Shown here: piece after piece, positions 29,779 through 53,013 of the stretch
Layout of the letters: every line of letters starts with the position of its first letter
Position numbering within the stretch: the stretch's first letter is position 1
Source of the DNA: Sphingomonadaceae bacterium
Lineage (GTDB): Bacteria > Pseudomonadota > Alphaproteobacteria > Sphingomonadales > Sphingomonadaceae
DNA length: 64,000 bases
Assembly (NCBI GenBank): GCA_046153865.1
Contig: JBJXFA010000068.1
Location: forward strand, 16,557-80,556
Reading direction: 5' to 3'
Translations under genes and position numbers: made by a program
Notes under the pieces: generated by a model
Told to the model about the DNA's origin: nothing
The model's database searches: none
The model's input: the letters and a program-made list of their open reading frames with translations, nothing else

Positions 29779-30711
29779 ATGGACGCAATTGCGGTCATAC
29801 TCGACGCGCCAGAGCGCCTCGACCTCCGTTCGCTCGCCCTCAATCCGCTGCAGGATGGCGACATCGTCGTCGAGATCGCATGGAGCGGCATCAGCACGGG
29901 CACCGAGCGACTGTTATGGTCGGGCCGGATGCCGGACTTCCCCGGCATGGGCTATCCGCTGGTGCCAGGTTACGAATCGGTCGGCCGTGTCGTCGATGCG
30001 GCGGCTGACGTGCGTGGCCGGATCGGCGAATGGGTCTTCGTGCCGGGCGCGAACTGTTACCAGGACGCACGCGGACTATTCGGTGGGACGGCAAGCCGGG
30101 TCGTGATGCCGGGCGCGCGGGCGCTGGCGATCCCCGAGTCGCTCGGTGTCTCGGGCGTGCTCATGGCACTTGCGGCGACTGCCTTTCACGCAATCGACGG
30201 CCATGCAGCGCCCGATCTGATCATTGGCCATGGCGTGCTCGGACGGCTGCTCGCACGAGTTGCAATTGCCAAAGGCGCGTCTGTGCTAATGGTCTGGGAA
30301 ACCAGCGCCGCGCGCACGGCGGGTGCCGAGGGTTACGCGGTCATCCATCCCGATGCCGATGACCGCCGCGACTACCGGGCAATCTATGATGCCAGCGGCG
30401 ACGCTTCGCTGATCGATTCGCTGATCGGGCGGCTCGCGCGCGGCGGCGAGATCGTACTTGCGGGGTTCTACGAAGCGCCGATCCAGTTTGCGTTCCCGTC
30501 CGCCTTCATGCGCGAAGCCCGGCTGCGGATTGCGGCTGAGTTCACGCCCGCCGACCTGACCGCCACAATTGCGCTGGTCGCGAGCGGTGCGCTGTCGCTC
30601 GACGGACTCGTCACCGACGTGCGGCCCGCCGCCGAAGCCGCCGACGCGTATCCGCATGCCTTTTCAAACCCTGAGTGCCTGAAGATGGCGCTTGACTGGA
30701 GTGCCGTATGA
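29779..30711 (+). CDS. bchC: 2-desacetyl-2-hydroxyethyl bacteriochlorophyllide dehydrogenase
   Basis: WSGISTGTERLLW.G.MP.FPGMGYPLVPGYE, FMREARLR. Confidence 0.95.
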   Translation: MDAIAVILDAPERLDLRSLALNPLQDGDIVVEIAWSGISTGTERLLWSGRMPDFPGMGYPLVPGYESVGRVVDAAADVRGRIGEWVFVPGANCYQDARGLFGGTASRVVMPGARALAIPESLGVSGVLMALAATAFHAIDGHAAPDLIIGHGVLGRLLARVAIAKGASVLMVWETSAARTAGAEGYAVIHPDADDRRDYRAIYDASGDASLIDSLIGRLARGGEIVLAGFYEAPIQFAFPSAFMREARLRIAAEFTPADLTATIALVASGALSLDGLVTDVRPAAEAADAYPHAFSNPECLKMALDWSAV

Positions 30712-31691
30712 GCATGCTCGATCCCGGCGCGTTGCGCGACGAGGCGCACGAGGAGCCCGATCCCGTGCACACCGGCCCGGTGACCAAGGAAACGCAGATC
30801 ATCGCGATCTACGGCAAGGGCGGCAGCGGCAAATCGTTTGCCTTGGCGAACCTCAGCTACATGATGGCGCAGCAGGGCAAGCGCGTGCTGCTCATCGGCT
30901 GCGATCCGAAGTCCGATACGACCAGCCTGCTCTTCGGCGGCAAATCGACGCCGACGATCATCGAGACCTCGTCGCGCAAGAAGCTCGCGGGCGAGGAGAT
31001 CGGCATCGAGGATGTCTGCTTCCAGCGCGACGGGGTGTTCGCGATGGAATTGGGCGGCCCCGAAGTCGGCCGCGGCTGCGGTGGGCGCGGGATCATCCAC
31101 GGCTTCGAGACGCTCGAGAAGCTGGGGTTTCACGAGTGGGGCTTCGATTACGTCTTGCTCGATTTCCTCGGCGATGTGGTGTGCGGCGGCTTCGGCCTGC
31201 CGATCGCGCGCGACATGTGCCAGAAGGTCATCGTCGTCGCGTCGAACGATCTTCAGTCGCTCTATGTCGCGAACAACGTCTGCAAGGCGGTCGAATATTT
31301 CCGCAAAATGGGCGGCAATGTCGGTGTCGCGGGGATGATCCTCAACAAGGACGACGGGACGGGCGAGGCGAACGCGTTCGCCGCCGCAGTCGGCATTCCG
31401 GTGCTCACCGCGATTCCCGCCAACGAGGATATCCGAAAGAAAAGCGCAAACTACCAGATCATCGGCAAGCCCGGCGGGCAATGGGCCTCGCTGTTCGAGG
31501 AACTCGCGATCAACGTCGCCGAAGCGCCGCCGCTGCGCCCGACGCCGCTCGATCAGGACGGGCTGCTGGGGCTGTTTTCGGCCGATGTTACGGGGGCGGA
31601 TTATTCGCTCAAGCCCGCGACGCAGGGCGATATGCGAGGGAGCGCGTTCGTGCCCAAGCCCTCGCTCGAAGTGGTCTATGATGCAGTCTGA
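30708..31691 (+). CDS. bchX: Chlorophyllide reductase iron protein
   Basis: [41 protein letters not shown]. Confidence 0.96.
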   Translation: MSMLDPGALRDEAHEEPDPVHTGPVTKETQIIAIYGKGGSGKSFALANLSYMMAQQGKRVLLIGCDPKSDTTSLLFGGKSTPTIIETSSRKKLAGEEIGIEDVCFQRDGVFAMELGGPEVGRGCGGRGIIHGFETLEKLGFHEWGFDYVLLDFLGDVVCGGFGLPIARDMCQKVIVVASNDLQSLYVANNVCKAVEYFRKMGGNVGVAGMILNKDDGTGEANAFAAAVGIPVLTAIPANEDIRKKSANYQIIGKPGGQWASLFEELAINVAEAPPLRPTPLDQDGLLGLFSADVTGADYSLKPATQGDMRGSAFVPKPSLEVVYDAV

Positions 31692-33300
31692 GGGCGCGAC
31701 CAATCCACCCCGGAACGGGGAGGTGCCCGAAGGGCAGAGGGGCCGGGTCGAGCTTGGCGCTTCCCTCGCAGCTGATGAGCGCGTTACGAGCGGCCCCTCC
31801 GACCCTTCGGGCCACCTCCCCGTTCCGGGGAGGATTGAAGGGGCCTGTTCCTCCAAAGACACACTGCGCGCGGCTGCGGTCGAGGCGGGTAAATCCGACG
31901 TGCTTGCGCGCTATGCGGCCGACTATCCGACCGGGCCGCACGATCAGCCGCAATCGATGTGCCCTGCGTTCGGATCTTTACGCGTCGGCCTGCGCATGAA
32001 GCGCACCGCGACGGTGCTCTCGGGTTCGGCGTGCTGCGTCTACGGGCTGACCTTTACCTCGCACTTCTACGGAGCCAAGCGCTCGGTCGGCTATGTGCCG
32101 TTCTCGTCCGAAACGCTCGTCACCGGCAAGCTGTTCGAGGACATCAAGGAAGCCGTCGAAGGCCTCGCCGACCCGGCGAACTACGACGCGATCATCGTCA
32201 CCAATCTCTGCGTGCCGACGGCGAGCGGCGTACCGCTGCAACTGCTGCCCAAGGCGATCAACGGCGTGCGGATCGTCGGGATCGACGTGCCCGGCTTCGG
32301 CATTCCGACGCATGCCGAGGCCAAGGACGTGCTCTCGGGCGCGATGCTGCACTATGCGCGCGCCGAGGCCGAAGCAGGGCCGGTCGCCGCGCCCAAGGAT
32401 CGTTCGGATTTGCCGACGGTGACGTTGCTCGGCGAGATGTTTCCGGCCGATCCCGTCGGCATCGGCCAGATGCTGGCGCCGCTCGGGCTGGCGGCAGGTC
32501 CGGTCGTGCCGACGCGCGAGTGGCGCGAGCTCTATGCAGCACTCGATTGCGCGTGCGTCGCGGCGATCCATCCCTTTTACTCGGCCAGCGTCCGCGAATT
32601 CGAAGCGGCGGGGCGGACCGTGATCGGCTCGGCGCCTGTCGGCATTGACGGCACGGCAGCCTGGCTTGACGCGGTGGGTGCCGCCTGCGGGATCGCGCAG
32701 GCCAAGGTCGATGATGCGAAGAACCGCTTCGTCCCCGCCATTCGCGCCGCTCTCGCCGCCAAGCCCATTTCGGGACGCATCACGGTCTCGGGCTATGAGG
32801 GCTCCGAACTACTGGTGGCGCGCCTTCTGATCGAAAGCGGCGCAGAAGTCCCTTATGTCGGCACGGCCTGCCCGCGCACCGTGTGGAGCGACCCCGATCG
32901 CGACTGGCTCGTCGCGCGCGGCGTTCATGTGGAATATCGCGCGAGCCTCGAGAAAGACCTTCAGGCCGTCGACGCGTTCGCGCCCGATCTTGCGATCGGC
33001 ACGACGCCGGTCGTTCAGCACGCCAAGGCGCGGTCGATCCCGGCGCTCTATTTCACCAACCTGATCTCGGCGCGCCCGCTGATGGGCGTCGCGGGGGCAG
33101 GCTCGCTCGCGCAGGTCGTCAACGCGGCGATGGCGAACAAGGATCGTTTCGAGCGGATGACGGACTTCTTCGAAGGCGTCGGCAATGGGCACACGGCGGG
33201 CGTCTGGGAAAAGACTCCGGTCGATCGCCCCGAGTTCAAGGCCAAGTTCGCCGCCAAGCGCATCGCCGCCGCCAAGGCCGAGGAGGCTGTCGGTGTTTAG
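31678..33300 (+). CDS. bchY: Chlorophyllide reductase subunit Y, with N-terminal in-frame palindrome insert
   Basis: GPHDQPQSMCPAFGSLRVGLRM, GSACCVYG, NLCVPTASG. Confidence 0.95.
   Translation: MMQSEGATNPPRNGEVPEGQRGRVELGASLAADERVTSGPSDPSGHLPVPGRIEGACSSKDTLRAAAVEAGKSDVLARYAADYPTGPHDQPQSMCPAFGSLRVGLRMKRTATVLSGSACCVYGLTFTSHFYGAKRSVGYVPFSSETLVTGKLFEDIKEAVEGLADPANYDAIIVTNLCVPTASGVPLQLLPKAINGVRIVGIDVPGFGIPTHAEAKDVLSGAMLHYARAEAEAGPVAAPKDRSDLPTVTLLGEMFPADPVGIGQMLAPLGLAAGPVVPTREWRELYAALDCACVAAIHPFYSASVREFEAAGRTVIGSAPVGIDGTAAWLDAVGAACGIAQAKVDDAKNRFVPAIRAALAAKPISGRITVSGYEGSELLVARLLIESGAEVPYVGTACPRTVWSDPDRDWLVARGVHVEYRASLEKDLQAVDAFAPDLAIGTTPVVQHAKARSIPALYFTNLISARPLMGVAGAGSLAQVVNAAMANKDRFERMTDFFEGVGNGHTAGVWEKTPVDRPEFKAKFAAKRIAAAKAEEAVGV
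31702..31836 (+). repeat. 135-bp palindromic element (copy A), in frame within bchY
   Basis: Arms AATCCACCCCGGAACGGGGAGGTG / CACCTCCCCGTTCCGGGGAGGATT; 45 codons, no stop. Confidence 0.9.
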
Positions 33301-33310
33301 CGCCGCTCCT

Positions 33311-33447
33311 AATCCTCCCCGGAACGGGGAGGTGCCCGCAGGGCGGAGGGGCCGGGTCGAGCGCGTCGCCCGTTTCGAGGCATTGGCGCGCGCGTCGAGC
33401 GGCCCCTCCACCACTTCGTGGTCCTCCTCCCCGTTCCGGGGAGGATT
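33311..33447 (+). repeat. 137-bp palindromic element (copy B) between bchY and bchZ
   Basis: Arms AATCCTCCCCGGAACGGGGAGG / CCTCCCCGTTCCGGGGAGGATT; inner GGAGGGGCC..GGCCCCTCC. Confidence 0.9.
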
Positions 33448-46135: not shown

Positions 46136-51391
<5,256 letters not shown>

Positions 51392-51417
<26 letters not shown>

Positions 51418-53013
51418 CGTAAAGCGTGTCGAGGGATATCGACACTAGGCCATGCGCGGCGGCATAGGCTTCGGTGTTACGACGTGCCTTGCCGCGCACG
51501 AAGAAGGGGATTTTCTTCAATTCGGTTTCGGCCTCAGCGTCCCATAAATCCCCCCCGGAACGGGGAGGTGGCGCGCGGAGCGTGACGGAGGGGTCGCTCG
51601 ACGCGCTCTCCAAAGCCTCGGATTCGCCGCGCGCTTCACCCGGCCCCTCCGGTCCTTCGGACCACCTCCCCGTTCCGGGGAGGATCTGGCCGTGGCCCAG
51701 ATGGCTCGCGCCGTGTGCATCTGAGAATTCGAAATCGTCGCGGAACATCGTCAGCAGATGCTCTTCGAGGCCCATCGTCAGCGGGTGAATCAGCGTATCG
51801 AACAAGACGTTCGCGCCTTCAAAGCCCATGAAGGGCGAATGGCGCGCGGGAAAATCCTGGACATGGACGGGGGCCGAGATCACCGCGCAGCCGATGCCGA
51901 GCCGCTTGGCGATGTGGCGCTCCATCTGCGTGCCGAGCACGAGTTCGGGCTGGAGTGCGGCGATCGCGCTCTCGACTTCGAGATAGTCGTCGGTGATCAG
52001 CGGCTCGAGGCCGTGCTCCTCCGCCGCAGCGCGCAGATCGCGGGCGAATTCGCGGTTGTAGCAGCCGAGGCCGACGACCGCGAACCCCATCTCGTCGCGC
52101 GCGACCTTGGCGAGCGCGATCGCATGCGTCGCGTCGCCGAAGATGAAGACGCGCTTGCCGGTGAGGTAGGTCGAATCGACCGAGCGGCTCCACCATGGCA
52201 GCCGCGACGAAGCGGCGAGCACCGGCGCGGGATCGACGCCTGCGAGTGCGGCGACCTCGCGCACGAAATCGCACGTAGCACCATGGCCGATCGGGATCGT
52301 GCGCACGCAGGGCTGGCGAAAGGTGCGTTCGAGCCAGCGGGCGGCCTGATCGCCGGTTTCGGGATAGAGCAGGATATTGAAATCGGCCGCGCCGATCTGC
52401 GCGATGTCGGCGGGCGATGCGCCGAGTGGCGCGACGAGATGGACGTCGATGCCGAGGCGATCGAGCAGTGTGGTGATCTCGGCCACGTCGTCGCGGTGGC
52501 GGAAGCCGAGTGCCGTGGGTCCAAGCAGATTGGCGCGAGCGCGGCGCCCTTCGAGCGGCGTGCGCACCACCGTCTTGTCGGCGAGATGGCGCACGAGCTG
52601 GTAGAAGGTCTCGGACGCGCCCCAGCTTTCCTTGCGGCTGTAGCTCGGCAGTTCGAGCGCGATCACCGGTACGGGGAGGTGCATCGCCTCCATCAGCCCG
52701 CCCGGATCGTCCTGGATCAGCTCGGCGGTGCATGATGCGCCGACGAGGATCGCCTGCGGCTGGTAGCGCTCATAGGCGTCACGCGCGGCCGACTGGAACA
52801 ACTCGGCGGTATCGGTGCCGAGATCGCGTGCCTGGAAGGTCGTGTAGGTGACGGGCGGGCGCTTGCCGCGCCGTTCGATCATCGTGAACAATAGGTCGGC
52901 GTAAGTGTCGCCCTGCGGCGCATGCAGCACGTAATGCACACCCGTCATCGCCGTCGCGACGCGCATCGCGCCGACATGCGGCGGGCCTTCGTAGGTCCAG
53001 ACGGTTAGTTGCA

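Follow-up and report, generated by a model that had tools for sequence, protein, structure and literature searches.

A palindromic repeat lies in frame in bchY of a Sphingomonadaceae bacterium and is probably read as a tolerated N-terminal insert

Introduction

When a palindromic repeat sits just behind one gene and the next gene has already begun, is the repeat read as protein? The bchX-bchY junction of a Sphingomonadaceae bacterium (assembly GCA_046153865.1) raises this question. Within the 64,000-nucleotide stretch of contig JBJXFA010000068.1 that was analysed, here called the window, a near-perfect palindromic element of 135 bp starts 10 nt past the bchX stop, and 21 or 24 nt past the two ATG codons at which bchY may begin. 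Alignment with relatives and a structure model indicate that the element is very probably read as a 45-residue N-terminal insert that BchY tolerates.

In-frame palindromic repeats are known from Rickettsia genes, as the Rickettsia palindromic elements or RPEs (Ogata et al. 2000, cited here after PMC10969869 and PMC3733652), and repetitive extragenic palindromic (REP) sequences have been described within genes, dnaE2 included (Di Nocera et al. 2013, PMC3733652). The bchY element is a clear case of selfish DNA tolerated inside a protein, not an unprecedented one. The features of the junction are as follows.

30708 to 31691, + strand: bchX, chlorophyllide a reductase iron protein, an open reading frame (ORF) of 327 aa with stop TGA at 31689-31691
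31678 to 31683, + strand: ATGATG, two candidate bchY starts (31678-31680 and 31681-31683) overlapping the last bchX codons, an arrangement for translational coupling
31678 to 33300, + strand: bchY coding sequence including the insert, 540 aa, from TIGR02015 and Pfam matches, with its stop at 33298-33300
31702 to 31836, + strand: near-perfect palindromic element, 135 bp or 45 codons, bchY codons 9-53, with ends AATCCACCCCGGAACGGGGAGGTG...CACCTCCCCGTTCCGGGGAGGATT
31702 to 31725, + strand: left terminal inverted repeat (repeat family D16), itself a hairpin of C-tract CCACCCC, loop and G-tract GGGGAGG
31724 to 31742, + strand: sub-terminal mini-hairpin TGCCCGAAGGGCA, then the mirror G-tract GAGGGG, a third run like that of a triplex motif, from reading the sequence against the TMECO consensus
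31813 to 31836, + strand: right terminal inverted repeat, read from the sequence; its last codon, ATT (31834-31836), is in frame
31840 to 31848, + strand: codons G55-A56-C57, holding the first invariant BchY columns, G55 and C57, in an alignment of 52 BchY sequences

Results

The element and its host genes

The host protein is BchY. It scores 702.9 bits against the equivalog model TIGR02015 (cut-off 425.15) over residues 82-502, and the Pfam family Oxidored_nitro matches residues 95-484; the insert, residues 9-53, lies outside the equivalog model. NifH-type Pfam families are recorded on genes orthologous to bchX, and bchX, bchY and bchZ all lie on the + strand of the window.

In the bchY frame the element has no stop and translates as NPPRNGEV...GHLPVPGRI. 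Tryptic peptides predicted from this segment include NGEVPEGQR and VELGASLAADER. The terminal inverted repeats are 24 nt each, and one long hairpin is predicted for the RNA of the element, with a fold energy of -103.8 kcal/mol (z = -9.7 relative to shuffles). A 16-mer from the core of the arm has six exact matches in the window, against 0.07 expected, and three copies of the element were defined.

The same site in relatives

Our collection of the genus Sphingomonas comprises 41 species genomes, 29 of them with bchXY. Most of these 29 congeners have no insert. Their flanks abut, and the bchX stop is followed by the DYP core after 85-106 nt, compared with 232 nt here; the N-termini at such empty sites read, for example, MQSEGACSS..TLR or MQSEGACSSGSTLR, with an ATG that overlaps the bchX stop. 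Among the collection genomes, the same family occupies the bchX-bchY site only in G008, with identical geometry. A protein search added three BchY sequences that share this insert and its frame (P0002, P0003, P0004) and one in which it is half deleted (P0016). All five orthologous inserts have the same junctions, with 12 nt from TCT to AATCC on the left and GGAT(T/C) followed directly by GAAG on the right. The insertion in bchY is not a recent private event; it is common to at least five other Sphingomonas BchY genes.

The frame has been kept throughout. The inserts of G008, P0002, P0003, P0004 and P0016 measure 135, 135, 132, 141 and 99 nt, all differences being multiples of three, and all five are open from the bchX-coupled ATG. 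The lengths of unselected family copies are spread over all residues modulo three (21/19/31). The bchY frame is open in all four complete orthologous copies, and each of the other two frames in two of the four. For an untranslated leader, the chance that an insertion would be both frame-compatible and stop-free is estimated at about 0.2 per insertion. Other repeat families occupy the same few bchY codons, always in frame, in G003/P0037, G055, P0065/P0055 and P0006; at least two, and probably four, unrelated families are involved. Selection has kept only frame-preserving changes at the bchY site. We also considered the N-terminal tail "RDRIDL" of other BchY proteins as a remnant of the element and rejected it, as this motif is a widespread ancestral tail in the order.

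The identical geometry across species argues for one old insertion. At the sequence level, the bchY copy is 85% identical to the copy between bchY and bchZ (described below) and 73-75% identical to its orthologous copies, which are 76-81% identical to one another.

A repeat-driven assembly artefact, or a bchY that is a decaying pseudogene, is close to negligible as an explanation. The genome is a 2.81-Mb draft of 64% G+C in 102 contigs, and several contigs end inside repeat copies, as an artefact would have it. However, independent assemblies have the same insertion at the same site, two of the contigs being 2.7 Mb and 3.5 Mb long, and here the element lies 48 kb inside an 82-kb contig. A pseudogene is at odds with a BchY that is full length, has the equivalog score given above and is 73-91% identical to its homologues.

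Where bchY translation starts

Invariance among BchY sequences sets in one codon past the element, with columns G55 and C57, and codons 55-81 vary across eleven species by 0.18, 0.19 and 0.56 at codon positions 1, 2 and 3. Invariant residues so close to the element, together with this coding type of substitution, place the start of bchY in or before the element. Counted from the bchX stop, the coupled start of relatives is an ATG (-8 or -11) or else, at -5, a TTG or CTG, and the public gene calls for bchY of P0002, P0003 and P0016 begin at the coupled start. At the coupled position, ATG, GTG and TTG are all missing from four congeners (G020, G024, G018, G003). Their in-frame codon 5 nt ahead of the bchX stop is CTG, suggesting that re-initiating ribosomes use a non-canonical start; G020 has an additional TTG at +16.

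Could translation begin inside the element instead? There is an in-frame GTG at 31723, within the left arm, and the ATT at 31834 is the last codon of the element. A start at either would turn most of the element into a 5' leader; with the ATT the protein would begin about one residue ahead of the conserved G-x-C. REPs at predicted N-termini may be extragenic, with translation beginning downstream (Di Nocera et al. 2013, PMC3733652), and GGGGAGG, with which the element ends, looks like a Shine-Dalgarno sequence, the role it has for bchZ at the second copy. Against such a start, the spacing from GGAGG to ATT is 0 nt, both candidate codons are within the arms of the -104 kcal/mol hairpin, and neither is conserved: at codon 16 the orthologs read GGG, and their elements end in AAC or ATC. 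Unlike a leader, whose frame could drift freely, the orthologous copies differ by multiples of three and stay open. G003, moreover, lacks a canonical in-frame start in or after its element, with no in-frame ATG, GTG or TTG from -53 to the conserved core. We regard an internal start as improbable. Translational bypassing of the hairpin, as in T4 gene 60, was also considered and rejected, given that there are no matching take-off and landing codons and no stop after a take-off site.

An earlier note on this DNA had placed a 135-bp, 45-codon copy between the coupled ATGs and the conserved start of BchY, with no in-frame start just after it. The coordinates and the stop-free frame agree with this, and a usable in-frame start just past the element is indeed missing, the TTG at 31835 being out of frame. 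The note makes no mention of the in-frame GTG and ATT codons. That the repeat lies in frame between the coupled start and the BchY core is borne out by the empty sites of congeners, the frame-keeping orthologous copies and the coding signature one codon past the element.

The insert falls in a part of BchY that varies in length. The tail before the BchY core ranges from 30 to 93 residues among 121 homologues. AlphaFold2, run with the 52-sequence alignment, gives residues 1-58 a predicted local distance difference test (pLDDT) score below 50 and no secondary structure, the first helix beginning at residue 60. A search of the PDB gave no solved BchY structure at E <= 1e-10.

A possible RNA or DNA function

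A different possibility is that the element is kept mainly for what it does as RNA or DNA, its own translation being a side effect. With a stable hairpin where bchX ends (3') and bchY begins (5'), and that of the second copy at the bchY 3' end, it would set how stable, or how well translated, the bchX, bchY and bchZ segments of the mRNA are relative to each other. Pairing does remain very strong in three of the four orthologous copies (-104, -109 and -120 kcal/mol), changes on one arm being matched on the other; in P0002, for example, the arms have changed on both sides, to GGCAC on the left and GTGCC on the right. The arms are more conserved than neighbouring coding third positions, and different repeat families recur 8-12 nt past the bchX stop. 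The second copy supplies the ribosome-binding site of bchZ, and REPs, which are believed to work at the RNA level, mostly follow coding regions (Di Nocera et al. 2013, PMC3733652).

However, most congeners do without any element at the bchX-bchY site. The G008 copy has decayed to -71 kcal/mol and the P0016 insert has lost one arm, and both stay in frame. Gene conversion among dispersed copies would explain the conservation of the arms equally well. Strong pairing in three copies next to decay in G008 and P0016 means that an RNA role, for instance in stabilising bchX at its 3' end or in modulating how bchY is translated, is possible and not required. As the main reason for keeping the element we judge it unlikely, if somewhat less so than an internal start.

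Other copies in the window and the genome

The two further copies in the window are these.

33311 to 33447, + strand: second copy, 137 bp, between the bchY stop and the bchZ ATG (33451), from arm matches
51547 to 51686, - strand: third copy, 140 bp, in frame within the bchB linker, from arm matches

The second copy begins 10 nt past the bchY stop, and its end, GGAGGATTCAGATG, provides bchZ with a Shine-Dalgarno sequence, GGAGG, at a distance of 6 nt from the ATG. bchY and bchZ, which overlap as ATGA in relatives, are here separated by the copy. At the same junction G001 and G013 have a different repeat (..CCCTGAGCTTGTCGAAGGG..). The two copies that flank bchY have the same orientation and lie 1,609 bp apart, start to start, so that homologous recombination between them would delete bchY.

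The bchB copy is in another frame than the bchY copy and reads ILPGTGRW...PPPRSGGDL. The bchB linker of relatives is shorter or carries different repeats: CCCTCCC..GGGAGGG hairpins in G001 and G003, ATGCTGAACTTGTTTCAGCAT in G011 and G013, and CGAGCGCAGTCGAG in G010. In G008, bchB is broken across two contigs at the linker position.

The earlier note had read the bchY and bchB copies in different frames, as the two translations confirm, and had taken the element to be stop-free in at least two frames. A six-frame analysis finds each genomic copy open in 2 to 5 of the six frames, an openness that is unremarkable at roughly 70% G+C. The note had also oriented all three copies with the host transcript. 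An internal asymmetry common to the three, GGGGCCGGGT.. on the left and GGGGCCGCTCGA on the reverse-complemented right, does point the same way relative to the host gene in 3/3 copies, which at P = 0.25 is not significant. Repeated entry into the genes for chlorophyllide oxidoreductase (COR) and dark-operative protochlorophyllide oxidoreductase (DPOR) subunits was the last of its claims; it stands for the two copies inside genes, bchY and bchB, and fails for the third, which lies between bchY and bchZ.

About 12 full copies, 135-150 bp long and 75-85% alike, are present in the genome, with partial ones where contigs end. Contigs C7, C37, C67, C77 and C90 start or stop inside element copies, which shows the repeat breaking up the assembly and makes the copy count a minimum. 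Three of some 18 genomic copies fall within 20 kb of the photosynthesis gene cluster, where about 0.13 would be expected if they were evenly spread, a comparison made post hoc. Outside the window, a copy in frame in trmD (C56:218442-218581) splits the TrmD methyltransferase domain, and another (C50:54317-54430) lies in frame inside the HHH_6 domain of a DnaE2-like polymerase, both domains being confirmed with Pfam. The trmD loop is larger by 108-166 nt in about nine congeners, and the bchB linker carries other repeats in five (G001, G003, G010, G011, G013). Permissive sites, namely the bchY N-terminus, the bchB linker and the trmD loop, have been colonised repeatedly. The flanks of the copies in this genome show no visible consensus for a target sequence.

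Lone 25-nt hairpins, AATCCTCCCCGGAACGGGGAGGATT, are found on C11, C35, C49 and C59, mostly right after stop codons, and inverted doublets elsewhere. A separate 46-nt inverted repeat in the window at 47721-47829 (I4; arms 80% complementary and 17 nt apart, CCGCTTCCCCGAGCGAAGCCGAGGGGCG...) probably belongs to another palindromic repeat family.

Distribution and relation to known repeats

The family is order-wide in Sphingomonadales. A 20-mer of the arm occurs exactly in more than 120 Sphingomonadales records among the matches listed, which include Sphingomonas, Sphingopyxis, Novosphingobium, Allosphingosinicella, Erythrobacter and other Sphingomonadales. About 10% of family copies across the order are intragenic. 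In other Sphingomonadales the family lies in frame in truB, glyS and a metH-like gene, as identified from flanking residues only. A search of Rfam with the element gave only sub-threshold, spurious matches to miRNA hairpins and no known RNA family, and a literature search for the arm sequence found no paper.

Judged by analogy, the element works like known in-frame palindromic repeats of the RPE kind. It is a multi-copy palindrome of about 100-150 bp that lies in frame and stop-free in a functional ORF and is absent from most orthologues. The comparison with RPEs is one of description, and we do not file the element as a sequence member of that group. As with RPEs, palindromes of about 100-150 bp sit in frame in unrelated housekeeping genes, where they would be read as extra peptide segments; they sit in tolerant protein parts and are common to related species. 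Even the targets overlap, as R. conorii has a repeat in dnaE and RPE-1 in truB (PMC3733652), and the present family is found in a dnaE2-like gene here and in an apparent truB in other Sphingomonadales. Unlike the RPEs, the present family has an unrelated sequence and a free-living phototrophic Sphingomonas as host, its intragenic share is far smaller than that reported for RPEs, its halves have a triplex-motif layout, and a long form carrying DUF559 exists.

Three other classes invite comparison. REP/REPIN elements are reportedly associated with REP-associated tyrosine transposases (RAYTs), a system said to have been treated by Bertels and Rainey in 2011. Like them, the present family occurs as single 25-nt hairpins and inverted doublets, mostly just past stop codons; unlike them, its hairpin has no GTAG or CGTC tag. 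A search for RAYTs (Y1_Tnp, PF01797) found no match in this genome. Matches were found in 5 of 41 congeners, with the 16-mer in none of those loci. We therefore rejected membership of a REP/RAYT system, the cognate RAYT being absent from the genome and unlinked to the repeat in congeners.

The second class is that of the intrastrand triplex motifs BoxC, PIT and TMECO. The TMECO consensus is CCCTCNCCC N3-6 GGGNGAGGG N3 GGGNGAGGG (Holder et al. 2015, PMC4666352). Similarly, each half of the present element consists of a C-run CCTCCCC, a loop, a G-run GGGGAGG, a second loop and a mirror G-run GGAGGGG; in the bchY copy these runs read CCACCCC..GGGGAGG..GAGGGG on one strand at 31705-31742. The second loop, in contrast, is a mini-hairpin of 12-20 nt (13 nt in the bchY copy) and not 3 nt, and the units are inverted pairs of about 135 bp. 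TMECO is reported to be always intergenic (PMC4666352), whereas the bchY copy lies inside coding sequence.

Finally, the element resembles MITEs, miniature transposable elements with inverted repeats (PMC10969869), in being short, non-coding and multi-copy, with 24-bp terminal inverted repeats, and in being capable of in-frame fusions. It differs in having no clear target-site duplication and no transposase-bearing parent that we could find. The comparison of filled and empty trmD sites gave no duplication, and there was no consistent one overall; imperfect 8-9-bp repeats occur at the bchY 5' end and at the bchY-bchZ junction, the bchY copy being flanked by TGAGGGCGC and TGAAGGGGC. A MITE parent with a transposase was rejected, as the only long forms with the same ends (448-467 bp, in several genera) enclose a DUF559-like ORF. 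A transposase lying between arms far apart was likewise rejected, as paa operon genes and no mobile element lie between the arms of the 2.6-kb pair in L054.

DUF559 nuclease cassettes

A unit of 448-467 bp, enclosed by the same arms and sub-terminal hairpins and with a DUF559-type ORF (Vsr-like, PD-(D/E)XK) at its centre, is present at 10 of 120 loci, which come from different genera. These ORFs were identified by motif pattern, and the DUF559 genes of the genus were found with PF04480. The ten units are at the loci L044, L046, L057, L079, L094, L099, L111, L118, L123 and L148; in L046, L079, L118 and L148 the entire unit is one open frame from first base to last. DUF559 genes of the genus are multi-copy, as many as six in one genome, and contig ends are a frequent location. 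All those inspected are bracketed by hairpin arms and a mirror G-run of one family or another, and arm matches of the present family bracket DUF559 genes in G013, G017, G001, G010 and G023. This genome has a single full DUF559 gene (C59:131000-131650), flanked by a different hairpin family, CCCTCCCCCTTGAGGGGGAGGG ... CCCCTCCCCGCCGGGGAGGGG. Its own copies of the element are old.

Since the same arms bracket DUF559 ORFs, the 135-bp element looks like an ORF-less form of such a cassette. It is tempting to speculate further, although we think the whole proposal doubtful: the element would be ORF-less progeny of undescribed small mobile cassettes, whose sole protein is a Vsr-like DUF559 nuclease of about 115 aa and whose inverted ends form hairpins or triplexes. 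The bchY site would then be a "slot" occupied for a long time, in which nuclease-triggered gene conversion has renewed the occupant or exchanged one subfamily for another, with selection on BchY passing only the frame-preserving versions.

Discussion

The overlap of host genes may explain how a repeat of the intergenic kind comes to lie in a protein. In the mechanism we propose, a non-autonomous palindromic repeat built from two inverted modules, in each of which a mirror G-run follows a hairpin, would have entered just after a gene. Because bchY begins before bchX ends, the site just past bchX lies within bchY, so that "just after a gene" for bchX would be codon 9 of bchY. The same logic applies to the second copy, at a junction where relatives overlap. 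Ribosomes initiating at the coupled ATG would read through the element and produce a BchY with an insert in which Pro, Gly, Arg and Glu abound, disordered by prediction and placed in the variable tail outside the catalytic core.

Several points weigh against this account. The AlphaFold2 model of BchY is moderate, with a mean pLDDT of 70. A G+C-rich hairpin of 60 bp, 21-24 nt past the start, may hinder initiation or elongation, and the in-frame ATT at the end of the element may allow a low-level downstream start. The history of the site is a further difficulty. The bchY tree groups G000 with G008 with weak support, and our copy belongs to a different subfamily than the orthologous copies, so common descent is argued from geometry and not from sequence. 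Identical geometry with divergent sequence may reflect gene conversion within the genome or replacement of the occupant; a second insertion at the same place may also have occurred.

A translated, tolerated insert nonetheless has several consequences. For annotation, the long BchY N-terminus is in all likelihood coding and should be taken as such, and the start codon should not be moved downstream. For enzymology, the first 55 or so residues of BchY are predicted to be dispensable for the fold and tolerant of 45 extra ones, which would be useful for tagging or engineering COR. The DUF559 link, if confirmed, bears on how such repeats move. Finally, the bchX-bchY junction is a natural replicate series, with the same element in at least six Sphingomonas species and only frame-preserving insertions and deletions. 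It shows overlapping genes turning "intergenic" repeats into protein segments that are filtered by selection.

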